DNA of 64,000 bases from an uncultured Treponemataceae bacterium (GCA_964468155.1 CAYXUF010000002.1:37465-101464), one strand, 5' to 3'. Shown: positions 3,556 to 62,671, counted from the stretch's first letter. Numbers and translations are program-made. The notes: generated by a model from the sequence alone, not told the origin.

Positions 3556-4091
3556 ATGTCGGAAGAACAATCGCTCATTACTTTTGAGAATTCACAGATT
3601 CGCAGGCTCTTCGATGACATCGATGTCATCGCAGCGCTAACCGGAAGCCTCAACCCTCGCGATTATTGGTTTAAAATGAAGGTCAGGGTTAAATCCGAGG
3701 ATGGAATCGAACTGTCGACAATTTGTCGACAGTTGAAGATGAAGGCCGCCGATGGGAAAATGCGGAATACGGATGTGACCAATGTACAGGGTCTTCTGCG
3801 CATTATTCAATCCATTCCATCGCCGAAAGCCGAACCCTTTAAGCAGTGGTTGGCCAAAGTAGGCTACGAACGCATCCAGGACATGAGCGATCCGGCTCTC
3901 TCTCTCGATCGCGCGCGTGAATACTGGAAGCAGCACGGCAGGAGCGAAGTCTGCGCGATCACATGAGCGAGGCGGAACTGATTTTTACTGCGCTTGCGGA
4001 GCTTTCCACTCGTCAGATCGCTGAAAGCGTTATAGCTACGGGAATGGAAGAGAATGCCGAAGCAGGAAAAAAAGGAAGAAGGTCGACATGA
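3556..4091 (+). pseudogene. Decayed Bro-N / phage antirepressor-like gene (internal deletion plus frameshift)
   Basis: The 136-aa ORF carries the conserved IQSIPSPKAEPFKQWLAKVGYERI block and stops at 3964-3966. A second frame (3963..4091: MSEAELIFTALAELSTRQIAESVIATGMEENAEAGKKG) resembles the C-terminal tail of full-length family members, with the middle missing. GC is lower than the flanks by eye. Confidence 0.6.
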
Positions 4092-5194
4092 GTGCCTTGA
4101 TCTGGATAACGCAGGCTACAGGCAATCCGAGGTTCCCCTACCGGGTCGCCATCCTGCGCGAGGGCGAGGCTCAAGCCCTTTTCGCCGTCCGCGCCGCTGA
4201 CAAATGGCCGGGTCCGGGGGCCAGCATCTTCTGCGTCCGCGACGGCTCCACAGCCGACGAAGTGGACATCTTCGAGGAGGTGGAGCGCGTGCCCGTCATC
4301 GGCTACGAAGTCTTCGGGCGCAGGATTTCCGTCACCCTCGACAGGCCGGTGCGCAAGCGCTGCGAGTTCCTCGTTCTCGAAAAGTCCTACCGCGACCGCG
4401 AAGGCAGCTACGAGCAGATTTTCTTCCGTACCCAGGCTTCGATTGAAGCCCATAAGTCGCGGTCCAAGGTCTCCCTGCGCGCCGAGACCGACATGACGAT
4501 AGCCATCGATTCCGGCGAACGCTATGCCTGGAAATTCCCCGGGGCGACGACGATAAAGCGCAAGCTTCGTTCAGGCGACTATGCCTTCGTCGAGGCTGAC
4601 ACCGTCCTTGCCGTCGTGGAGCGCAAGAGCTACGACAACCTCCTGGGCGACATCGGAAGGATCGTCGTCCTCCACCAGAGCCTCCGCGAGCTCGCCGGCT
4701 ACCCGGCCGCGGCCGTCGTCATCGAAGCACGTTATGGCGACTTCATGGATCCGGTCCGACTCAAGGGGCGTTGGCCGGCCGGCCATTGCTGCCGCGTCCT
4801 GGGCGAACTCCAGGCGATGCATCCGACCCTGCCCTTCATCTTCGCGGGCACCCGGAAGGAAGCCAACATCTGGGTCTGGTCCTTCTTTAAAGCGGTTTCC
4901 AGAAAAGCTGCCCAGACCTCGTGCGATGAAGGTCTTTTCGCCGCCGAATCTCGCCCGCCCGATTTCTCCTCCGTTCCGGATCTCGAAGCCCGCGTCCTGT
5001 CCCTCATCGGCGCGACGCCCGATGGCCTCACCGCTCTTGCGCTCAAAGAAGCCCTCGGCGATGTCGACGCCGTCCTCCTGCGCCACAACCTTGCCAGACT
5101 AAAGGCGAGAGGCGCAGTGGCTTGCTCGTCCCGGGGTCCAAAAGCCAGGTGGCGAATTCTTACAAAACCGAGTCCGGATGCATTGACGATCTAA
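4088..5194 (+). CDS. ERCC4 (XPF/Mus81-type) nuclease-domain protein with an unknown N-terminal domain and a wHTH-like C-terminus
   Basis: Motifs AIDSGER (aa 139-145) and GDYAFVEADTVLAVVERKSYDNLLGD (aa 163-188) match the ERCC4 signature GDY...ERK...D. The ATG overlaps the stop of the Bro-N remnant (ATGA). Confidence 0.7.
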   Translation: MSALIWITQATGNPRFPYRVAILREGEAQALFAVRAADKWPGPGASIFCVRDGSTADEVDIFEEVERVPVIGYEVFGRRISVTLDRPVRKRCEFLVLEKSYRDREGSYEQIFFRTQASIEAHKSRSKVSLRAETDMTIAIDSGERYAWKFPGATTIKRKLRSGDYAFVEADTVLAVVERKSYDNLLGDIGRIVVLHQSLRELAGYPAAAVVIEARYGDFMDPVRLKGRWPAGHCCRVLGELQAMHPTLPFIFAGTRKEANIWVWSFFKAVSRKAAQTSCDEGLFAAESRPPDFSSVPDLEARVLSLIGATPDGLTALALKEALGDVDAVLLRHNLARLKARGAVACSSRGPKARWRILTKPSPDALTI

Positions 5195-14348: not shown

Positions 14349-15575
14349 TCATCGGCCATAGGCAAGGCTGATGACCGCTCCTGTCTCCCTTTCGAGATTT
14401 CCCGCATCGCAATCGATAATCTTCATCTCTTGCCTGCCCAGAACCTCTATATCCTTCATGCCCGACCCTGTAAGCATCACGACAACCCGCGCCCGGGATG
14501 GAATCGCTCCCGAAGCGGCAAGCCTGCGCAGGGCGGGCAGGGTCGTGGCCGTGCCGGGCTCGACGAAGAAACCGGATCGGGCGCAGAGAGCCTGGGCTTC
14601 CAGTATCTCCTCTTCCGTCGCGACCTCCGCGAGCCAGCCGAATTCCAGGGCTTTGTCGAGGATTTCCTCGCCCCCGGGCGGCCGGCCCGAGGTCAGGGCC
14701 TCGGCGATAGTCGTAAAATCCCTGAACGGCACGATCTCCCTGCTCCCCTTCCTGATGGCGCTCGCCACGGGGCTGTTCGCCGCAGCCTGGGCGATGACCA
14801 TGCGAGGGAGCCGCGAAATAAGGCCAGCGGAGCGAAGCTCGCGAAAGCCCTTGAAGATGCCGCGGACATGGCCGCAGGCCGATGTCGGCACGACGATGAA
14901 ATCGGGGGCCTCGCCGCCGAGATTCTCGAAGAGCTCGAAGGCTTCCATCGTGTAGCCCTCAACCCGTATCGGTCCATTGCCGGAGACGATGCGAAGACCC
15001 AGTTTGGAGGCGAGCCCCAGAACCCTCATCTTGATGTCGGCGTAATCGGCGCCGCCCACGCGGACGATGGTCGCCCCATGGACGGCCATGGAAAGGACTT
15101 TTTCGCGGGGGACAAAGGCGGGCAGAAAGACGATGACCCCGAGGCCGGCCCGCGCCCCGTAGGCCGCCATGGACTGGCCCATGTTGCCCGTGGAGATGGT
15201 GGCGGTGATCCGTTCTCCCCGCTCGACGGCCATAATGGAGCAGGCGATCGAGCCCCTGTCCTTGAAGCTCCAGGAGGGATTCGCCGTCTCGTTCTTGAGG
15301 AGGAGGTTTTCCACTCCGGCGTACGCTTTCAGGGAAGGTCCGGCATCGACGAGAGGGGTCGAGCCTTCGCCGAGGGAGAGTTCGGGATGGGTCCCCTCGA
15401 AGGGCATGAACTCGGCGAAGCGGTCCCAGATTCGCTCACCTGGCCGTGGACGGGCTTTCTCGATGCCCGGAAGGACGACTTCGAGCGATTCGCCGTTGTC
15501 GGCAAATTCCTCGAGCCTTTCGAAGGGGTATTCGATGCCGCTCAGGGTCGATCGGAGAAAAGGAGCCTTTTTCAT
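14349..15575 (-). CDS. Threonine-synthase-like PLP-dependent enzyme (tryptophan-synthase beta superfamily)
   Basis: PLP-lysine motif NPSWSFKDRGS and glycine loop TSACGH. Start trimmed to the ATG at 15575 (MKKAPFLRS), 8 nt below the rSAM stop. Confidence 0.8.
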   Translation of the reverse strand: MKKAPFLRSTLSGIEYPFERLEEFADNGESLEVVLPGIEKARPRPGERIWDRFAEFMPFEGTHPELSLGEGSTPLVDAGPSLKAYAGVENLLLKNETANPSWSFKDRGSIACSIMAVERGERITATISTGNMGQSMAAYGARAGLGVIVFLPAFVPREKVLSMAVHGATIVRVGGADYADIKMRVLGLASKLGLRIVSGNGPIRVEGYTMEAFELFENLGGEAPDFIVVPTSACGHVRGIFKGFRELRSAGLISRLPRMVIAQAAANSPVASAIRKGSREIVPFRDFTTIAEALTSGRPPGGEEILDKALEFGWLAEVATEEEILEAQALCARSGFFVEPGTATTLPALRRLAASGAIPSRARVVVMLTGSGMKDIEVLGRQEMKIIDCDAGNLERETGAVISLAYGR

Positions 15576-53568: not shown

Positions 53569-53713
53569 CTTTTATTTTCGCAGAGTCGAAGCCGCGTTAA
53601 AACAGGCCTATCCACATCAGCGGGAATATGGTTCTGCGCTAGTTGGGTCGGTCTTATTGAATGGTTCTGGCTTTGAATAAAAATATATCGATGAGTGGAG
53701 TGAAACTGGACTA

Positions 53714-53883
53714 TGGGCCCACCTGGACTTGAACCAGGGACCAACGGATTATGAGAGGAGGACAGCTCGCATCCCTAGACATCTATAGTAATATCCAGAA
53801 TCGATTTATTGGAAGAGTCGGTATCCCAAGAAATCCACACAAAGCTGGAGAAATATCTAAGTATTCTACAAGTTTTTCTACAA
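53714..53883 (-). repeat. Island-boundary repeat, copy 1: tRNA(CAU) 3' half plus about 125 bp island arm
   Basis: The reverse complement reads CTCATAA-TCCGT-TGGTC-CCTGG-TTCAAGT-CCAGG-TGGGCCC-A (anticodon loop, stem, variable loop, T-arm, acceptor strand, discriminator). There is no matching 5' half. About 80% identical to 56745-56914, with a 33-bp perfect core (53723-53755). Confidence 0.7.
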
Positions 53884-54038
53884 GAGCCACCTCTTTTGTA
53901 GACTTTTTTAATCTATTTTCTGCAATTTGCTCGCTTCAAAGATGTGGAATTCCCCCGGTTTGCAGATTTTGCTTGACAATTATAACGATCAAATTTAACA
54001 TTAAGCGTAATGAATATACTTTCTTAAAGGAGCTTAAA

Positions 54039-54971
54039 ATGCTTAGGAAAAAACCTGCTCTTATCTTTATGGTTCTCCTGGCTACAGTTGTTTATATAGC
54101 TCCTGTCTTTTCTCAGGATGCTGTTGCGATAACAGATGTTCCATTCGCTACATACCTCTCTAGGGTACAACCTAACTTGATGTTTCAGATACTCAACAGG
54201 GCAGCGGTTGAGTTTGGCAAAGAAAAACTGAAGGGTACTGTCTATGAGGGTTTGCCGGTATTGTCCCGTCAATCCATAACCTGGGCGGGCTTCCGCGGTC
54301 CGAGCGACTTTTTGAGCCTTCCTGCTGGCAATTTGACAATCGACACCATTTCGAAAATTTATCGCTATAGCAACACTGTTCAGGCCTTGAAATTGAATGG
54401 CAAACAGATTGTTGAGTGGCTTGAGTTTTCAGCAGGGACTTATAATCAGATCGATCCAGACAAAGCTGAAGACCAGCAATTGATCAATTACAAATTTGAT
54501 AGTCACCTTATGGATCATTGGTGGGATATCACCTATCAGTACGACGTTACAAAACCTCTGGGCAGCAGGGTCGTATATGCGAAATACCAAGGTAAGCCAC
54601 TCGTGGAAGATATGGCTTTTATCGTCATGACAGATAATTACCGAGCCGGCGGCGGCGGCGGATTACCCAATGCAGTTCCTGCAAATATTGTCATGAAATG
54701 GGATGTAAATTTCAGGACAGTAGTTGCCGATTATCTCAAATCCGTATCAGGCAAAATGCCTGAACTAGTTATCAACTGGTCTATCAAGCCCGTTAAGACC
54801 AAGGGAAAAGTGCTTTTAAAAACTGGAGACCAGTGGGGCGTACCGGTCATAGATTATATGGAAATAGCCGCCAAGTTGAAGCTCGAACCAGTCGATCATA
54901 TTCAGTACTTTGGAACCGATGATGTCTGGGGATTGTTTGAGATTGATCTCTCGAAGGTGGCTACGCCATAA
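54039..54971 (+). CDS. Secreted stand-alone 5'-nucleotidase C-terminal (substrate-binding) domain protein
   Basis: Start trimmed to the ATG at 54039 (AAAGGAG RBS; signal peptide MLRKKPALIFMVLLATVVYIAPVFS). TDNYRAGGGGGLP is the UshA/CpdB C-domain motif. No metallophosphatase N-domain is present. Confidence 0.75.
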   Translation: MLRKKPALIFMVLLATVVYIAPVFSQDAVAITDVPFATYLSRVQPNLMFQILNRAAVEFGKEKLKGTVYEGLPVLSRQSITWAGFRGPSDFLSLPAGNLTIDTISKIYRYSNTVQALKLNGKQIVEWLEFSAGTYNQIDPDKAEDQQLINYKFDSHLMDHWWDITYQYDVTKPLGSRVVYAKYQGKPLVEDMAFIVMTDNYRAGGGGGLPNAVPANIVMKWDVNFRTVVADYLKSVSGKMPELVINWSIKPVKTKGKVLLKTGDQWGVPVIDYMEIAAKLKLEPVDHIQYFGTDDVWGLFEIDLSKVATP

Positions 54972-55080
54972 ATTGCCCAGCAATTTCCAAAGAAGCTCTA
55001 TGAAGTTTTAAAGACTTCGGATGCAGCACTCTCGTTGTGAGGCGGGGGTGCTGTTTTAATTGAACAAGGAGCAAATAGGA

Positions 55081-56628
55081 ATGAAAACATCAAATTATAA
55101 CCGATACGCAATTTTTATTGTTCTCTTTTCGGTACTTGTATTTTCTGGCGTCGCTCAAGATCAGCCTTTTTTAAATTTGAAGCCAAGACAGATTGTGCTT
55201 ACATATCAAAACAACCCTCAAACAAACATCACCATTACCTGGCGAACCGATCAAAAAGGAGAAAAGTCAATCGCGCTATTTTCTCCCGCCTCTGGAGCAG
55301 AGATTCAGGAGTATGCACAACAAGAAGCCGAAACCTATACTTTCAAAGAGACGAAGGCCTGGATACACTCCGTTGAGTTGACGAATCTAGTTCCTGAGAA
55401 GACCTATTGGGTTATTCTCCAGACCGATGATCAGAAAAGCAAAAAATTCAGTTTTAGGACAGCCTCTAACCAACCACGCAATATAACTTTTGTAATGGGC
55501 GCCGACGCTCAACATCTGCGCACGGAGATGCCAATTATTCGCCAAGTCATTAGTGGGGTCGCTAAAGAGAACCCCGATTTCTTTGTGTATTCTGGCGATT
55601 TTGTCAATGCCGAACTGAGTGAGTATGAATGGGATTTGTTTTTCGATCTTGCGGACGAGTTATTGATAACCGACGAAGGAAGAAGGATACCTATCGTTCC
55701 AGCTATTGGCAACCACGAAGTAGTCAATGGTTACGGCGGTAACCAAACACTTGCTCCTTTTTATTTTCAGAGATTTAAACTACCCGAGCCTAAGAATTAC
55801 TATTCGATTCTATATAGCCAAGACCTGCTAATTATTTCCCTTGATTCCAACCATTCATCTCCCGTAGCTGGAGTTCAGGCTGCCTGGCTCGCACAGACGC
55901 TAGAGAGATATAAGGATGCCAAGTGGAAGATCGTTCACTATCACGATGGTGCATGGTGGGGGAATGAAAGCATGTATGTGAATATGCGCGCTTTCTGGAT
56001 ACCACTATTCGAAAAATACGGTGTCACGCTTGTACATAATGGCCACTCGCATTCGTATAAAAGAACTGCTCAGATAAGCAATATTGGATCGTATTCAAAA
56101 GAGATAGATAAAATTGTCGTGGATGGTTTAGCAAAAGCAAAAAAGGATTTCGATCCTACAAAGAAATATGCACCGCCATTACAACGGAATCTGATGAAAT
56201 TGTCGCGTGGCGACTGGCAGTCTACAGGGTTTTCTTCCTTATTCGAAGGTTTGAAGGAAATGGTCTATATGCTGTCCCTCTATGTGATTCAATCAGGCGA
56301 AGTAACAAAAGAGAAAGTGTACGATCAAATGAGTACTACCAAGCTATACTCAGATTATTGGGCTCAAGTTCTTTCACCGGACAATAAAAGCCAATTGATT
56401 GATAAGACTGCGGGTATTGTCTATCTCACAGGAGGTGGATTGGGTGCCACGATGGATGCGCAAAGCCCCAATGCAGAAAGATGGTGGATAGAAGAAACAA
56501 AATCAGAATATCACTACCGAAAAGTGACGCTGGATCTGTTGAGTGGCGAATTACAGATAGAGCCGAAGTTCTACGATCCGATAAGGAATACATGGGAAAA
56601 CAAGGATGTGATAAGGATACAAAAATAA
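55081..56628 (+). CDS. Secreted purple-acid-phosphatase-like metallophosphoesterase
   Basis: Signal peptide, an Fn3-like PAP N-domain (ITWRT), then GDF..N, GNHE and VHNGHSHSY metallophosphatase blocks. AAGGAG RBS before the ATG at 55081. Confidence 0.8.
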   Translation: MKTSNYNRYAIFIVLFSVLVFSGVAQDQPFLNLKPRQIVLTYQNNPQTNITITWRTDQKGEKSIALFSPASGAEIQEYAQQEAETYTFKETKAWIHSVELTNLVPEKTYWVILQTDDQKSKKFSFRTASNQPRNITFVMGADAQHLRTEMPIIRQVISGVAKENPDFFVYSGDFVNAELSEYEWDLFFDLADELLITDEGRRIPIVPAIGNHEVVNGYGGNQTLAPFYFQRFKLPEPKNYYSILYSQDLLIISLDSNHSSPVAGVQAAWLAQTLERYKDAKWKIVHYHDGAWWGNESMYVNMRAFWIPLFEKYGVTLVHNGHSHSYKRTAQISNIGSYSKEIDKIVVDGLAKAKKDFDPTKKYAPPLQRNLMKLSRGDWQSTGFSSLFEGLKEMVYMLSLYVIQSGEVTKEKVYDQMSTTKLYSDYWAQVLSPDNKSQLIDKTAGIVYLTGGGLGATMDAQSPNAERWWIEETKSEYHYRKVTLDLLSGELQIEPKFYDPIRNTWENKDVIRIQK

Positions 56629-56744
56629 AGTTGATAGGTTTATCCTGCGAAGCTGTCTAGATTTCTGTCTACTGACAGTCACTGGAATTCGTTTCAGGTG
56701 TTTTTGCACTAAAATATAAGTGCTTTTCTCATAAACAATTACTA

Positions 56745-56914
56745 TGAGCCCTGCTGGACTTGAACCAGGGACCAACGGATTATGAGCGGAGGACAACTCA
56801 CTCCCTTATATACATATAGTAATATCCAGATTCGATTTATTGGAAGAGTGTGCATCCAAAGAAATCCGTATAAAGCTTGCGATATATCTAAGTATTCTAC
56901 AAGTTCTTCTACAG
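56745..56914 (-). repeat. Island repeat, copy 2: tRNA(CAU) 3'-half-like sequence plus arm
   Basis: The 33-bp core 56754-56786 is identical to copy 1. The acceptor-proximal 9 nt differ (TGAGCCCTG versus TGGGCCCAC) and would break T-stem pairing. Confidence 0.7.
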
Positions 56915-57066: not shown

Positions 57067-58182
57067 CTAGCATGAGTGCATGATGGGAAGAGAGCGTTTC
57101 AAATCATTAAGGTAGGAATTGTGAGGATGCAACTTCTCATGCTGGAGCCGGCCAAGCACGATCGCGGGTGCAATACCGCATTCTTGCGCAAAGTGCTCTA
57201 TCGATTCGCGTGTAAAATTATCGCCTTTACGGGTAAAAGACTCCCACGCTACATCTGGTATGAGAAAACTCCTTGAAAAAGCATCCGCTTCCTTTTCGAT
57301 TTCACTTTGAGGCCCGTCTGATTCTATAAAGAGCTTCACACTCCCATGGTGGATAATGTGTGCGGCTTCATGAAAGAAAGAGAACCAGAAGATATCCTCT
57401 GTCTTCCCCTTGCAGGAGAAGACCATGAGGGGACGATCTTTGGAGAGCCATCGCACCGCGCCATTCACGTGAGCACCTTTTATAAGAGGTACAAAGGCAA
57501 CTCGAACGCCGCATGAACCACATAAGTTGATTAAAGAATTAACAATGTCTGTCGTTTCTAGCCGAGTAAGTTCCTTGGCTTCTTGGATTACTTTCTTGAA
57601 GCGGCCTTTATCGAAGGGAGGGCATTCCAGCTTCAGCGCTTCGAGCTCCGCTTTTCGGAGATAGGTAGCCAGTGAGAAACTATCAGAACTATGTTTTTGA
57701 GAATCCCGTAGCGTAGCTTCGAGGTTCATTTTCCCCCAGATAGCTTCCCAATCATCTGGCCCATTAACGCCGAAGTAAGTAAGTAAACAATCAAGAATCA
57801 ACTCTGGTCGGTGCCTCTCAGGAAGCCAGCCTTTATTCATCATGTCACGAATGCAGGAAAAGTTTTTAAGCCAAGGAACAAGACTTGTGAGCCTCTCGGC
57901 TTCCTTGAGCCGTGCTACTGACTCATCATACTCCCTTTGACGGTTGTTCCAAAATGCAGCGGAGACACCGAAGACTCGTTCGAGCTGGATAGCCGTATCG
58001 GGGGTTATGGCGGTCTTCCCCTTAAGGATTTCATTGATAGTCTTTCGCGGCCTACCAATGCGCTCACATAGTTCCGCCTGCGTCATTCGTCGCTCTTCGA
58101 GAAGTTCTGCGAGTGTATCACCAGGAAGGCTTACGATTTCTGGATTGTACTCGTTAGAAAATTCATTCGTCATGATAGTCAA
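57067..58182 (-). CDS. HigA-like XRE-HTH antitoxin fused to an ImmA/IrrE (M78) zinc metallopeptidase domain
   Basis: HTH MTQAELCERIGRPRKTINEILKGKTAITPDTAIQLERVFG. HExxH motif in FFHEAAHIIHH with a downstream E (EKEAD). Overlaps the toxin gene stop. Confidence 0.85.
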   Translation of the reverse strand: MTIMTNEFSNEYNPEIVSLPGDTLAELLEERRMTQAELCERIGRPRKTINEILKGKTAITPDTAIQLERVFGVSAAFWNNRQREYDESVARLKEAERLTSLVPWLKNFSCIRDMMNKGWLPERHRPELILDCLLTYFGVNGPDDWEAIWGKMNLEATLRDSQKHSSDSFSLATYLRKAELEALKLECPPFDKGRFKKVIQEAKELTRLETTDIVNSLINLCGSCGVRVAFVPLIKGAHVNGAVRWLSKDRPLMVFSCKGKTEDIFWFSFFHEAAHIIHHGSVKLFIESDGPQSEIEKEADAFSRSFLIPDVAWESFTRKGDNFTRESIEHFAQECGIAPAIVLGRLQHEKLHPHNSYLNDLKRSLPIMHSC

Positions 58183-58468
58183 TCACCTCAAGGATGAGAA
58201 CTGCGGTCACCTTTTCTAATTCAAGATGGCCATTTATTGTAAGTGGAACAGGGTTCCCAAGTGGACGATACACAAGTCGATATGGCTCTTCGATATGACA
58301 ACCCCACGTACCTGCTCGGTTCGCTTTTAAGATATGGTGCTTCCCCGGCAACAATACTAGGTCAGCCATAGAAGGAGCTGCTTTCATGTCGTCGAGCCTC
58401 AACTTAAGCTTTCCGGTTGCTTTACCACAACGCTTCCGTATAGAACCATTATCATAGCTGATGTCCAT
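58163..58468 (-). CDS. HigB-like (plasmid maintenance killer protein family) toxin
   Basis: 101 aa. LRLDDMKAAPSMADLVLLPGKHHILKANRAGTWGCHIEEPYRLVY fits the HigB-like toxin pattern. The toxin-first gene order is typical of HigBA. Confidence 0.7.
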   Translation of the reverse strand: MDISYDNGSIRKRCGKATGKLKLRLDDMKAAPSMADLVLLPGKHHILKANRAGTWGCHIEEPYRLVYRPLGNPVPLTINGHLELEKVTAVLILEVIDYHDE

Positions 58469-58509
58469 CTTGTCAAGAGATTTATTAACCCAATGGGTTA
58501 ATAAATCAT

Positions 58510-61500
58510 CTACTCCTTTTGTTTTGTAAAATACTGTTGGACAAGTTCTTGAGCATGTATAGAGAGTTCTCCCGATTCCTCAGTAGTAATTAGCCTGCTA
58601 GGGAAGTTCTTTTCGTACCATCGCTGCTTCTCCTCCCAGTGGGCACGATACTTATCTTGCTCCAATAGTCCAAGATGCTCCCAGTAGTACTCCTGGCCAT
58701 GCCACAAAATGGTGAAGTCAGGAAGATAGAAAGAACCGTCGCGGGCATATAGGGGCTTTTCGTACCAAAATGGGATTTCTCGGTCAAAGAGCATATTTGC
58801 GATGATCACTTCTGACTTAGAGCGAACCATGACATTTGCAAGGCTTCGATGGATACGATATTTCTCGAGAAAGCCCTCAACACGAAGTGCTGCAAGCTCG
58901 TTAGGAACAATGTGCACACCAAAAAGTGAAGAGTTAATGGATTCAAGATGCGAGCTTTCAGGTCGATACATCTTGAGAAGAGGGCCGATATCGCCTTCGA
59001 TGAGAACTGTCGAATGGCGCGTAGCTCTAGTTAAGCCAGTATACAGAAGCTCGGGAGAAAGTAAGGCAGGCTTCTTGGGGATAACAAAGTATACTTGGCA
59101 AAATTCACTCCCTTGAGCCTTATGGACGGATATCGCATAAGCGAGCTCAAGATTGTCCTCAGGCTTTTCACTTTTCTTATCGTAATTGACGGCAAGATGC
59201 TCTTTGCGCGAGAACTTGACCGCGAAACGTTCAAATTTAAAACGCGGCCATAACCATTTGCTCGCCTCATAACCGACAGGTTCCACCATGCCAAGTTCAC
59301 CATTGAAAACATTGACTTTTTCTTGGTTTCGAGTTCGCCAATTGAATGCCATGATTGGCTCACTTTTCCCTCGATTACGGATCTGTATCACTTTATCGAA
59401 GATCGTAATACCGCCTATTGTACCAAGGCGCTTAATATTTCGCGATTGTGCTGCCGACTGGAGTGCAAGATTGAGCGGATTTGTGCCGTAATCCTCATTG
59501 CGATAAGGCGAAAGGACCTGCTGGTAGAGAGGATCAGGAGTTTCTCTCCCTTGAGACCATGCAGCCTTCCAGAGCTCCCAAGGCTTATCAGAGTCGAACT
59601 CTTTCCCTGTTTCTTCCTGCATATCTGCGACTATTTGGGCGAGAAGCTTTTCTTGAAGATCTTGGCCATTTTTCCAGTAAATAACACGTAAATCCTTATC
59701 TACCACTCCGTCAGGAGGCAAATCCTGAAGCCGTTGGAAGAAAAGCTCCGCCGCAAGGCAGTCGTCTTCGCTCTTGTCATTCTGGTTTGATTTTCGCTTG
59801 AAGAGTTCAGCTAGATCGAGAATACCTGTCCCGCAGTCGTTTACACGGTTCTCAAGCTGGCGCAGGTTAATGGAAAGCTCTCCGACATTCTCTACAAGGT
59901 CTCTCTTGAGCCACGCGATGAGATCCGCAAAAATTCGACCTCGCCCTATCGGTGGCAATTGATTTGGATCGCCAACCAGAATGAGACGCTGTACAGCATT
60001 CCAGTTAATTGCTCGAACTAGGCAGGCGAAGAGAGAGAGATCAAGCATAGATGATTCGTCGATAATGAAAGTGGAGATCCCTTCTTCTTTCTTCCCTCCG
60101 TTGCGGCGATAGGTCATGTTTTCGCGGAGCCATCCGCGTTTAGCCAGAAATGAATGGATAGTAAGCGCTTCCTTGCCAGTTTTATCCCTCATCCTATCGG
60201 CGGCCTTGCCCGTTGGCGCGAGTAGGCAGAAACTCGTACCTTGGCCATGGGCTTTCTCGATCGCCTTGATAATTGACTCGACAACCGTCGTCTTACCTGT
60301 CCCTGCGCCACCACAAATCACGGCAACAGGCTTTCGGAAGACTTGATCGCAGATTGAAGCCTGAGCCTCGATCGCTTTCGCGTAGTCAGCGGCAGCATTG
60401 CGCGCTAGAGAACAATCCTGTTTGGTGAGGTAAGCGATCCAGTCAATCGGCCTAAGTGGTGATTTAAATGTAATGTCAGGTAATCCTGCAAGCGCTTTGA
60501 GTTGCCTTTCCACATCGCGCTCGTCTTCGAACACTTCACGAAGATAGAGGTAATCCCGGTCGTTATATCTAGTAAAAACCAGAGCCTGCTCGAGACTTTT
60601 CTTGTCGACGCTCAAATAGCGTTCTGAAAACATCGTTTTCTTCCATTCCGGCTGGAGACTAAGCCTACGGTTGACTTCCTGGAGTACAACTCCTGAAGGG
60701 CGGAAGCTGTGCTTGGTTTCTCTCTTGAGAGCTTCGACGAGTAGGGCTCTGAGTCGTCGCCAGTCGTCGAGTTCCCAGTCATCAACACGACCAATACTAG
60801 GAGAGGGATAGAGACCATGCTCTACCTTGCTGTAAGAAATGCGGTCATCAGGGCCGGAGCCCTCGTATTGCTCGGCAAGGATGAAGGGGTTCCCCTCTAT
60901 CTCTTGAAGCGAAGCCTCTACACTCCAATCTGAGCGCTCTTTGGATAGAATAGTCTCGAACTGTTCCTTTAAAAGGTCAAAACGTGGAAATATACCCGAG
61001 AGAAGCCTACGTTCATCATCGTCCTTCAACTTCCAAGTTCGCTGTACTTTAGATGCGTCCTTTTCAGAAATACTCCAGGGAGTCTGAGCTCCAGGATTTT
61101 CATTAAGCCATTCTACTACTGCGTTCTTGAACTCGACCTCATGTCCTTGCGCAGTCGCTTCCTTGAATCGGACAATACCCTCCCCAAGGCCAAGCATATC
61201 GAGAATCCGGCCAAAGCCTGGATAGAGCCCCCTGCTAGACCATAGTTCTGCAAGAAGTCCATTAAGCCATTCAAGTCGATGCGTCCAATTCTCCGAACTG
61301 TCATGGAGTTCGTCCCGAAGATAAGTAGCCACTTCAATGAAACGCTCAATAATAGAGAGAGCGTCGTCATCAGAAAGCTGCCTTGAAGCATACTTGAAGT
61401 TTCTCTCGTTATCCGGAAAAACAGCCAGTCGTTCAAGTACGTCTGGACGATCATTGTATAGATGATACGGAATTCGAAAGCCTTGGTTGGCGTAGTCCAT

Positions 61501-62106
61501 AGTAACCGGGCGTTCCCACACGAAGCCACCATACTTATCGATATCAGACTGAGGGAGATTGGGATAATGGTAGAGTTCGCCGACCACCGAAATTCGGCTA
61601 ACACCTATAAGGATGTAATGTTTGCTGTCTTCAGATGAAAATGGATTGCTGTAGTTGGCATATAGAAATAATAGGCTTTTACCGATTTCTACAGCATCGA
61701 AATGTGCCTTCACTGCCTCCAAACGTTTTTTCGCGTCGTAGTTTCCATCAGTCTTGACGGCTTCGTCATACATAGCCTCGTAGGGCCATGTACATACAGT
61801 ATAGGGAGGGACATCCCATAAAACGCGTTCCCCGCCAGTAAAGAAATCTGGTGGATCATCGAACATGGTCGCCGGTTCAGGATCGAAGGCATGCGCACTG
61901 AACCCACAAGTGACATCCTGTGTTAGGAGGGCTATGCGTTGTCCAGCGACGCTTGCCTCCCAAGAGCTGTTCTTTCCCTTCGCTATCTTATCACCAGGAT
62001 AGGAATGGGCTCCCTGACAATGGGTATTACATGCGGGATTACGACAGATGCAGCCATTCCAACCGTTGTCGTGCCATGCAACTCTTGCTGAAATGTGTAT
62101 CGCCAT
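58510..62106 (-). CDS. 1198-aa fusion: unknown Cys-containing N-terminal region (aa 1-590), RecD/TraA-like SF1 helicase (aa 590-1040), Vsr/DUF559-like PD-(D/E)xK nuclease (aa 1085-1160)
   Basis: Walker A GGAGTGKTT (K605), Walker B FIIDESSM, LVGDPNQLPPIG, SVHKAQGSEF and YTGLTRAT. The C-terminal SKSE(1099)...LPD(1130)F...YWE(1143)H resembles Vsr-like endonuclease motifs. The N-terminus is ARVAWHDNGWNGCICRNPACNTHC. Confidence 0.85.
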   Translation of the reverse strand: MAIHISARVAWHDNGWNGCICRNPACNTHCQGAHSYPGDKIAKGKNSSWEASVAGQRIALLTQDVTCGFSAHAFDPEPATMFDDPPDFFTGGERVLWDVPPYTVCTWPYEAMYDEAVKTDGNYDAKKRLEAVKAHFDAVEIGKSLLFLYANYSNPFSSEDSKHYILIGVSRISVVGELYHYPNLPQSDIDKYGGFVWERPVTMDYANQGFRIPYHLYNDRPDVLERLAVFPDNERNFKYASRQLSDDDALSIIERFIEVATYLRDELHDSSENWTHRLEWLNGLLAELWSSRGLYPGFGRILDMLGLGEGIVRFKEATAQGHEVEFKNAVVEWLNENPGAQTPWSISEKDASKVQRTWKLKDDDERRLLSGIFPRFDLLKEQFETILSKERSDWSVEASLQEIEGNPFILAEQYEGSGPDDRISYSKVEHGLYPSPSIGRVDDWELDDWRRLRALLVEALKRETKHSFRPSGVVLQEVNRRLSLQPEWKKTMFSERYLSVDKKSLEQALVFTRYNDRDYLYLREVFEDERDVERQLKALAGLPDITFKSPLRPIDWIAYLTKQDCSLARNAAADYAKAIEAQASICDQVFRKPVAVICGGAGTGKTTVVESIIKAIEKAHGQGTSFCLLAPTGKAADRMRDKTGKEALTIHSFLAKRGWLRENMTYRRNGGKKEEGISTFIIDESSMLDLSLFACLVRAINWNAVQRLILVGDPNQLPPIGRGRIFADLIAWLKRDLVENVGELSINLRQLENRVNDCGTGILDLAELFKRKSNQNDKSEDDCLAAELFFQRLQDLPPDGVVDKDLRVIYWKNGQDLQEKLLAQIVADMQEETGKEFDSDKPWELWKAAWSQGRETPDPLYQQVLSPYRNEDYGTNPLNLALQSAAQSRNIKRLGTIGGITIFDKVIQIRNRGKSEPIMAFNWRTRNQEKVNVFNGELGMVEPVGYEASKWLWPRFKFERFAVKFSRKEHLAVNYDKKSEKPEDNLELAYAISVHKAQGSEFCQVYFVIPKKPALLSPELLYTGLTRATRHSTVLIEGDIGPLLKMYRPESSHLESINSSLFGVHIVPNELAALRVEGFLEKYRIHRSLANVMVRSKSEVIIANMLFDREIPFWYEKPLYARDGSFYLPDFTILWHGQEYYWEHLGLLEQDKYRAHWEEKQRWYEKNFPSRLITTEESGELSIHAQELVQQYFTKQKE

Positions 62107-62431: not shown

Positions 62432-62671
62432 ATGGAAGGGAAAGAGACTTGGCATCTGTTAAACGTCGAGGAAGCAGCTAGATTTCTTGGGATAGCCATC
62501 CCGACGTTACTACAAAAGAGGCCCGACGTTCCACGCATTCATATTGGCAGACGGGTCCTATTCGATCCTCGCGACCTCGAGGAGTATATTCGCGCCCATC
62601 GAAGCGTTGCTTCGAAAGCCGACAGTTCCACGAATAGCCGAATCAGAACCAATGAGGCTGAATCAGCCTAA
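62432..62671 (+). CDS. Excisionase-family (MerR-like) helix-turn-helix protein
   Basis: LLNVEEAARFLGIAIPTLLQKRPDVPRIHIGRRVLFDPRDLEEYI matches the Xis/AlpA-type HTH pattern. Confidence 0.7.
   Translation: MEGKETWHLLNVEEAARFLGIAIPTLLQKRPDVPRIHIGRRVLFDPRDLEEYIRAHRSVASKADSSTNSRIRTNEAESA

Follow-up and report, generated by a model that had tools for sequence, protein, structure and literature searches.

A helicase-nuclease of the candidate defence family PDC-S68 beside a HigB/HTH-M78 cassette: probably two separate cargo modules of one genomic island

Calling of open reading frames (ORFs) in a 64,000-nucleotide (nt) stretch of DNA from an uncultured Treponemataceae bacterium (GCA_964468155.1 CAYXUF010000002.1:37465-101464; here named the window) revealed three co-oriented minus-strand ORFs at positions 57067-62106. 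They encode a helicase-nuclease of 1198 amino acids (aa), a small HigB-like protein and a helix-turn-helix (HTH) protein fused to an M78 peptidase (here named HTH::M78). The interval probably represents two cargo modules that are independent of each other and adjoin at the end of an integrative island, with the helicase-nuclease as one module and the HigB-like/HTH::M78 pair as the other. Both are of already catalogued kinds, namely a PADLOC candidate next to a common toxin–antitoxin (TA)-type cassette. A previous interpretation of the locus, made from the DNA alone (here referred to as the sequence-only reading), had proposed a single, undescribed three-gene system. The genes are the following:

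58510..62106, minus strand: helicase-nuclease ORF, 1198 aa
58163..58468, minus strand: HigB-like gene, 101 aa
57067..58182, minus strand: HTH::M78 gene, 371 aa (longest ORF)

The three ORFs, their co-orientation, the spacing and the overlap of toxin and peptidase genes are all present as claimed. A gap of 41 nt separates the helicase-nuclease stop codon from the ATG of the HigB-like gene, which overlaps the HTH::M78 gene by 20 nt when the longest ORF is used. The start codon of the latter is more probably the ATG at 58173, which would give a protein of 368 aa and an overlap of 11 nt, as M4 is almost invariant among homologous proteins and a close homologue, in locus L094, has 368 aa.

The 1198-aa protein matches the PADLOC model PDLC05066 (PDC-S68) with E=0 and 1638.6 bits, residues 1-1192 aligning to positions 1-1200 of 1202, and two other PDC-S68 models match with 1.1e-209 (PDLC05065) and 5.7e-175 (PDLC05064). 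By these profile matches it belongs to the candidate family PDC-S68 and, contrary to the sequence-only reading, had already been catalogued. The phage defence candidates (PDCs) are a collection of 145 single- or multi-gene candidates discovered as genes embedded within BREX, DISARM or type I restriction-modification (RM) loci, and their authors present them as untested (Payne et al., bioRxiv 10.1101/2024.01.29.577857). According to a 2026 survey, the majority of PDCs are still without validation. PADLOC lists PDC-S68 as single-gene; the name was not found by a full-text literature search, nor in the supplements of the original description (10.1101/2024.01.29.577857). Homology searches with the 1198-aa protein yielded 567 homologues at E ≤ 1e-10. 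The family is conserved across its whole length and occurs in at least 573 species genomes, with a patchy distribution over bacteria and archaea, and full-length members are also found on 22 plasmids and about 15 IMG/VR contigs. The JGI gene calls of the closest homologues (L081 10001 and L094 4604; 1114 aa) are truncated at the N terminus, and the respective ORFs extend upstream to MSIHISARVAWHDNGWNG, resulting in about 1198 aa.

The HTH::M78 protein reaches the cutoffs of both the NCBIfam model antidote_HigA (TIGR02607, 58.5 bits versus 47.7, residues 20-88) and Pfam Peptidase_M78 (PF06114, 26.0 bits versus 22), which bears out the earlier description as a HigA-type HTH fused to an ImmA/IrrE peptidase. 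It also matches Pfam HTH_3 (1e-11) and the HigA and VapI structures in the PDB (1e-8 to 2e-6). The peptidase motif HEAAH (HExxH) is located at residues 271-275, and H271, E272, H275 and E296 are invariant in 35 homologues. A total of 1214 homologues of like length were found, mostly annotated as "HigA family addiction module antidote". For the small protein, the proposed HigB-like identity is supported by a profile of six family members, the six best PDB matches all being HigB or GraT (7e-4 to 1.5e-3), and one protein of its cluster carries the name "proteic killer suppression protein". Its invariant H45 aligns to the His within KLHPLKGDR of Proteus HigB, and a second invariant residue, the C-terminal H99, lies within D-Y-H in the window protein; we take both to correspond to HigB catalytic residues. 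In six of six other contexts, a gene of 101-111 aa is found directly upstream of the HTH::M78 gene and overlaps it. The combination of HigB with an Xre-peptidase (Xre HTH fused to COG2856/M78) is cited in later literature as recognized in silico already in 2009. Judged by its domains, the pair is a cassette of this known kind and not new.

The two modules show no conserved linkage. Among 102 other near-full-length helicase loci, the pair lies beside the helicase in only one (L094), so that helicase and pair are adjacent in 2 of about 100 genomes including the window. The other two close helicase relatives (79-82% amino-acid identity) have different neighbours, and the PDC-S68 gene is absent from all six pair contexts looked up via HTH::M78 homologues. 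Together with the full-length match to a named family, this leaves the claim of an undescribed three-gene system unsupported. In such a system, products of the helicase-nuclease (e.g., single-stranded DNA) would activate the M78 peptidase, the HigA part would be destroyed and HigB would be freed as an abortive layer. The co-orientation and the short gaps between helicase and toxin genes (41 nt in the window, 52 nt in L094) fit this idea, and HTH and M78 proteins are found repeatedly in defence loci (L081, L096). Furthermore, the whole block from 62117 to 57086 of the window aligns collinearly with L094 over 5.0 kb at 74.9% nucleotide identity; the L094 block belongs to another island and adjoins an intact tRNA of another type. 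We weigh the latter as co-inherited neighbouring cargo rather than as a functional unit. A single three-gene system appears unlikely to us in view of the missing linkage, of the single-gene entry in PADLOC, and of an operator and promoter that belong to the pair, with no matching site near the helicase start. There is also a slim chance that the block shared by the window and L094 is a recently assembled two-layer system. In it, the PDC-S68 enzyme, with a hitherto unseen Cys-containing sensor fold (residues 1-240), would attack phage DNA, and the resulting single-stranded DNA or damage would activate the M78 peptidase to cut its own HigA part, with HigB as an abortive back-up.

The island backbones of L081 and L094 share 88% nucleotide identity through the ResIII, methyltransferase and helicase genes, and this similarity ends 12 nt short of the helicase stop codon. 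Beyond this point, L094 carries the window-type pair, whereas L081 carries CBASS and PD-λ-2 A/B. The junction at the end of the helicase gene is therefore a point of cargo exchange. In both L081 and L094, the cargo closest to the tRNA-derived boundary is a pair of the HigB/HTH-M78 type.

The 41-nt gap between the two modules harbors a perfect palindrome, read directly from the sequence, with the core TTAACC-N5-GGTTAA at 58485-58501. This site and its counterparts in other pair loci are located as follows:

58481..58505 of the window, no strand assigned: perfect 27-bp palindrome (13-bp arms)
4666-4682 of L085: palindrome
4669-4685 of L087: palindrome
1667-1683 of L090: palindrome
5633-5649 of L091: palindrome
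5586-5602 of L093: palindrome

In the window and in five of five pair loci checked, the small gene is preceded by the core at a distance of 10-23 nt, and every pair locus with available upstream DNA has it, across pair proteins that are only 38-57% identical. In three pair loci, it lies between a -35 (TTGACA/TTGATT) and a -10 (TAATAT) element. The palindrome is likely the operator of the HigA-type HTH, as predicted from its position and conservation; we found no description of it as a HigA-type operator. It is present in 8 loci carrying the pair compared to 1 of 84 helicase loci searched. In the window, the core occurs once versus 0.07 expected, with no second copy and hence none upstream of the helicase gene. 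With a conserved operator of its own and no copy upstream of the helicase, the pair would form a self-contained, presumably autoregulated transcription unit. The one helicase locus with the palindrome, L048 (15290-15306), has no detectable pair homologue; about 0.08 occurrences are expected in the 1.4 Mb searched. A general promoter and terminator scan of 56.8-62.7 kb gave counts no higher than shuffled controls, and the top promoter-like match was discounted because it straddles the ATG of the HigB-like gene.

An alternative reading of the pair is mainly a transcriptional controller of adjacent defence genes, similar to the C proteins of RM systems or CapH/CapP, in which case it would be leftover or idle in the window. 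The pair abuts ResIII and N6_N4_Mtase genes in five of eight distinct contexts and lies beside or within such systems in L085, a JGI contig, L087 and L089/L090. In L085 and L089/L090, the methyltransferase starts 3-5 nt past the HTH::M78 stop codon and would therefore share the operator-controlled promoter of the pair. PADLOC similarities to capP (2.9e-8) and capH (2.1e-5) point in the same direction. However, solitary pairs exist as well: in L091 the pair is surrounded by housekeeping genes, and in L093 it occupies the histidine-utilisation (hut) operon site used in L089, without the RM genes. These solitary occurrences fit a selfish cassette. In addition, the small partner keeps the HigB-type His and the C-terminal D-Y-H, presumably equivalent to catalytic residues, for which a pure regulator would have no use, and in the window no gene follows the pair before the island boundary. 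We therefore consider a controller function doubtful and favour the reading as a selfish TA-type cassette. The insertion point within the histidine-utilisation operon is flanked by the amidohydrolase and FTCD_C genes; one genome (L089/L090) carries the pair plus N6_N4_Mtase and ResIII there, and another (L093) carries the pair alone.

To place the helicase-nuclease in its family context, 80 genome loci with 10-kb flanks and the closest metagenomic relatives were surveyed, with adjacent genes analyzed in 82 loci. PADLOC matches of the adjacent genes include TmtA, BrxC, PglX, type II methyltransferases, DruE, AriA/GajA-type ATPases, mad genes and BrxL, and Pfam matches include ResIII, N6_N4_Mtase, DUF6079 (BrxC), Eco57I, Type ISP, DEAD/MZB, SAVED, AIPR and HipA. 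The neighbours are thus diverse defence genes with no fixed partner. A co-oriented neighbour within 150 nt was present upstream in 45 of 72 cases and downstream in 31 of 73, which amounts to an "embedded" pattern. For example, L096 shows the order BrxA-BrxB-BrxC-helicase-PglX-...-PglZ, in L081 the helicase is flanked by a type III-like RM system on one side and CBASS on the other, and in L083 it lies beside YjiT/YjiV-like genes. On Paracoccus and Bartonella plasmids, it adjoins type ISP and type I RM genes. The survey independently reproduces PADLOC's ground for listing PDC-S68, and on this comparative basis a defence role is the best reading of the helicase-nuclease. The window gene itself is not embedded in a host defence system and sits on an island bounded by a tRNA fragment; an exact look-up of its protein in the contig index gave no match.

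In the closest relatives, L081 (9338-9745), L083 (304-711) and L094 (about 4007-4348), a conserved gene of about 135 aa is located directly upstream of the helicase. The L081 and L083 versions are 77% identical and match nothing in Pfam or PADLOC; neither the window nor any of the 80 genome loci contains this gene. The BREX locus L096, which carries a PDC-S68 gene, also encodes an HTH_3+M78 protein of 338 aa between PglX and PglZ (14461-15477), with no upstream toxin gene and no detectable similarity to HTH::M78 of the window.

The same context bears on a possible role of the 1198-aa protein in mobilisation or replication of the island, as a TraA/TraI/RecD-like helicase, or in housekeeping repair. 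The protein shows weak partial matches to the helicase parts of the TraA and TraI models, the integrative element carries an excisionase-like HTH_17 gene, and family members occur on plasmids and proviral contigs. The TraA/TraI match is, however, confined to the P-loop domain (residues 587-730; 67 bits versus a cutoff of 590), and the protein has no relaxase domain. The sequence-only reading had named linkage to relaxase or type IV secretion system (T4SS) genes as a sign of mobilisation, and the 25 Pfam families encountered most often in helicase neighbours include none of this kind. Together with the defence-gene neighbours, this makes a mobilisation helicase unlikely. Moreover, the two plasmids examined, those of Paracoccus and Bartonella, are non-mobilizable, and the family is patchily distributed over bacteria and archaea and located inside BREX or RM loci. 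A mobilisation helicase was rejected on the P-loop-only matches, the non-relaxase neighbours and the non-mobilizable plasmids, and we regard the mobilisation or repair role as a whole as highly improbable.

The helicase-nuclease can be divided into four regions:

61387..62106, minus strand: residues 1-240, family-specific N-terminal alpha/beta domain
60367..61386, minus strand: residues ~241-580, helical, RecD2 N-terminal HHH-like with a probable winged-helix element
59002..60369, minus strand: residues ~580-1035, superfamily 1B (SF1B; RecD2-like) helicase motor
58513..58851, minus strand: residues ~1086-1198, PD-(D/E)xK-fold nuclease

All motifs quoted in the sequence-only reading occur exactly once, at the residue numbers it gives. 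The helicase motifs are GGAGTGKTT (599-607, with K605), IIDESSM (681-687), VGDPNQLPPIG (711-721), VHKAQGSEF (994-1002) and YTGLTRAT (1022-1029), and the nuclease motifs are SKSE (1096-1099, with E1099), LPDF (1128-1131, with D1130) and YWEH (1141-1144). Residues K605, E1099, D1130, E1143 and H1144 are invariant in 35 homologues.

The helicase core holds Walker A, DESS, motif III, an SH3-like insert and motifs V and VI, with the motifs invariant in homologues, and matches Pfam AAA_19 (3.5e-33), AAA_30 (7e-29), UvrD_C_2 (9.4e-12) and, weakly, SH3_13. Its best solved relatives are D. radiodurans RecD2 (3e1s, 2e-21), E. coli RecD, Dda and Pif1, in agreement with the RecD-type SF1 core recognized earlier. 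The protein is not a RecD2 or RecD orthologue, since its scores are far under the NCBIfam equivalog cutoffs (TIGR01448, 255.7 bits versus 500; TIGR01447, 186.5 bits versus 310).

The N-terminal half had been described as a 590-aa orphan, which is overstated for its second part. Residues 325-732 align to positions 98-462 of the NCBIfam RecD2 model, and Foldseek against BFVD ranks a RecD2 HHH-domain protein first for residues ~250-580 (E=3.3e-3, probability 1.0, 291 columns). A weak match to HHH_RecD2 (0.04) is the sole Pfam match from the N-terminal half and the C-terminal 143 aa. The region of residues 1-580 was modeled by AlphaFold2 (AF2) with a mean predicted local distance difference test (pLDDT) value of 91.1. 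Foldseek searches of this model against the PDB gave no fold match at E ≤ 1e-3, and winged-helix proteins were matched with probabilities of 0.6-0.9.

For residues 1-240, the orphan description stands, as they match no known fold. The domain contains the invariant residues R8, W11, C21, C30, C67 and W197. No significant Pfam match was found in 76 diverse members, noise being limited to Minor_capsid_1 in eight (0.0056 or weaker) and EVE in one (0.19), and a domain profile had no match among PDB sequences. A PUA/EVE-like fold was considered and not adopted; the best Foldseek match, 2p5d, presumably an EVE-type protein, reached only E=0.05 with a probability of 0.77. The domain was found in 592 of 1.84 billion representative proteins. 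All 32 inspected proteins (from the top 150, with lengths of 700-1000 aa or >1240 aa) are collinear with the PDC-S68 helicase architecture, and no other architecture was seen among these 32. We take the domain to be a putative sensor or targeting domain.

At the C terminus, residues K1097, E1099, D1130, E1143, H1144 and K1160 are invariant, and the AF2 model has core pLDDT values of 94-97. The top Foldseek matches in the PDB are nearly all PD-(D/E)xK proteins (Bax1, R2 endonuclease, DrdV, NucS, Can2 and Hjc), with probabilities of 0.9-1.0 and E=1.4e-3 to 0.1. The modeled structure thus gives good but not overwhelming support for a PD-(D/E)xK nuclease fold, because no match reaches E ≤ 1e-3. 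Of the earlier label "Vsr/DUF559-like", the restriction-endonuclease-like fold is retained and the family name is not: the C-terminal 143 aa have no Pfam match at E ≤ 10, no Vsr structure is among the top 50 Foldseek matches, and the E...PDF...E pattern resembles DUF559 by eye only. The nuclease domain recurs in genes neighbouring other helicase family members (L057 15081-15374; L039 15271-15558) and is shared by PADLOC PDC-S69 (1.1e-4), which suggests that it is a mobile domain.

The three genes lie in a low-GC island, as proposed previously, in which the GC content, about 0.59 elsewhere, falls to 0.41-0.51; the island starts at about 53.5 kb and continues to the end of the window. The following features mark its subdivision:

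53690-53800, minus strand: first copy of a direct repeat of about 90 nt
53714-53755, minus strand: second tRNA-like 3' fragment, likewise with a CAT anticodon loop (3 mismatches), judged by eye
56721-56831, minus strand: second copy of the direct repeat
56745-56786, minus strand: tRNA-like 3' fragment from the CAT anticodon loop to the acceptor end, within the repeat of about 90 nt

The repeat was delimited by alignment of its copies, and a pattern search for the tRNA-like fragment found 2 copies versus 0.00 expected. The earlier description of the island as "tRNA-linked" is therefore supported by a direct repeat with tRNA-like 3' fragments and not by a tRNA gene: ARAGORN called no tRNA in the whole window, and Rfam called none in 53-64 kb or in 56.70-56.86 kb. 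The direct repeats bracket a low-GC segment of 3 kb and mark the start of the next island unit. The tRNA-like fragment at 56745..56786 is probably the att-type boundary of the unit carrying the three genes. The two copies read as att-type remnants and suggest that a single tRNA site received two island units in tandem; the window contains no intact copy of this tRNA. Within the second unit, the three genes are found at the low-coordinate end, with about 280 nt between them and the boundary, and the interval between the HTH::M78 stop codon and this boundary holds just one ORF (62 aa), which has no PADLOC match.

The first low-GC unit (53751-56628) contains two apparently secreted phosphoesterase-type genes, unrelated to the three-gene block, of which one has a 5'-nucleotidase C-terminal domain and the other is of the purple-acid-phosphatase/metallophosphatase type. 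Upstream of the helicase-nuclease, on the opposite strand, are an excisionase-type HTH_17 gene (62432-62671) and a weakly AAA_25-like ORF that runs from 63.2 kb to beyond the window end. By their domain matches, both are consistent with an integrative mobile element.

The analysis shows which domains and families are present, that the operator is conserved and that linkage is not; from these features we infer the biochemical activities, the trigger and an anti-phage phenotype of the two modules as follows. The N-terminal domain of the helicase-nuclease would recognise a feature of invading DNA or an infection cue, upon which the SF1B motor would translocate 5'->3' along one strand. The tethered PD-(D/E)xK nuclease could then cut the translocated strand, resulting in processive degradation of foreign DNA comparable to that by RecB, AddAB or Dna2-type helicase-nucleases. 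In the cassette, the HTH would bind TTAACC-N5-GGTTAA at its own promoter and repress the operon, and the fusion protein would neutralise HigB, a ribosome-dependent RNase. Upon a stress or infection signal, the intact HExxH peptidase probably inactivates the HTH/antitoxin part. The freed toxin may then serve addiction and island stabilisation or, as in PD-λ-2, abortive infection.

Several points weigh against this interpretation. By single-sequence searches of Pfam and NCBIfam, the similarity of the small protein to HigB is marginal (PF05015, 0.011 and 16.6 bits versus a cutoff of 27; RelE_StbE TIGR02385, 1e-4 and 22.7 bits versus 27.9). The roles of toxin and antitoxin in the pair could be reversed, since in PD-λ-2 the HTH-peptidase B is toxic and the HigB-like A rescues. 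For PDC-S68, a full-text search on the name found no published phenotype, mechanism or domain dissection, and residues 1-240 have no assignable function by Pfam, PDB profile or Foldseek. Finally, the adjacency of both modules could have a local function, as it persisted through the substantial divergence seen in the collinear block of L094, located in a different island.

The present analysis provides the first domain dissection of PDC-S68, a candidate defence family found in at least 573 species. Its N-terminal domain of 240 aa combines a confident model and three invariant cysteines with no match to a known fold, and in the proteins inspected it occurs only in the PDC-S68 architecture; if the defence role of the family is true, this domain would be the obvious place for self/non-self or trigger logic. 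The TTAACC-N5-GGTTAA site offers a testable handle on the regulation of peptidase-fused antitoxins, and the comparison of L081 and L094 shows defence cargo exchanged at one fixed point, the end of the helicase gene. The two-layer scenario, if true, would directly link a nuclease-helicase effector to a protease-gated TA module.

Compared with PADLOC PDC-S68, the window protein shows no sequence-level difference. The homologues are equally single-gene and are embedded in BREX and RM loci, whereas the window gene differs in its setting, being not embedded and located beside a TA cassette. With RecD2 and RecD (3e1s, 1w36_D), the protein shares the motor motifs, the SH3-like insert and the HHH-type N-terminal module; it differs in the additional 240-aa N-terminal domain, the C-terminal nuclease and a context of defence rather than repair. 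Hhe, Nhi/AbiO and Hna likewise combine helicase and nuclease in one polypeptide and are located in defence islands. The PADLOC matches of the 1198-aa protein to Nhi (4.3e-4) and AbiO (6.6e-5) are at P-loop level only (residues ~581-716), and no match to Hhe or Hna was obtained at E ≤ 0.01. Hhe, Nhi/AbiO and Hna use a different helicase clade and domain order.

PD-λ-2 B matches HTH::M78 of the window at 1.1e-26 (residues 17-350 versus positions 57-377 of 402), and the gene order is the same, with the small HigB-type gene first and overlapping the HTH-peptidase fusion. PD-λ-2 is a validated defence system with a related HigB/Xre-peptidase pair as A and B; B alone is toxic and is rescued by A, and C, which resembles the P4 antitoxin, is needed for defence (Vassallo et al. 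2022, PMC9519451). The small protein of the window and three of its homologues have no match to PD-Lambda-2_A even at E ≤ 10, while the genuine PD-λ-2 pair of L081, used as a control, gave 1.3e-41 for A and 1.8e-127 for B. As no C candidate is present either, the 62-aa ORF before the boundary being the sole ORF there, membership of the pair in PD-λ-2 was rejected on the A and C components.

Canonical HigBA modules and the Xre-COG2856 architecture share with the pair an HTH at the HigA cutoff, a toxin profile matching HigB/GraT and the toxin-first gene order. However, canonical HigA has about 100 aa and no peptidase, whereas the window family has about 270 extra residues with an intact HExxH, invariantly attached. 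ImmR/ImmA, DdrO/IrrE and CapH/CapP also combine an M78 HExxH peptidase with an Xre-type HTH. In these systems, repressor and protease are separate and there is no RelE-type partner; in the window family, by contrast, a single protein unites both, and its gene invariably has a HigB-like partner.

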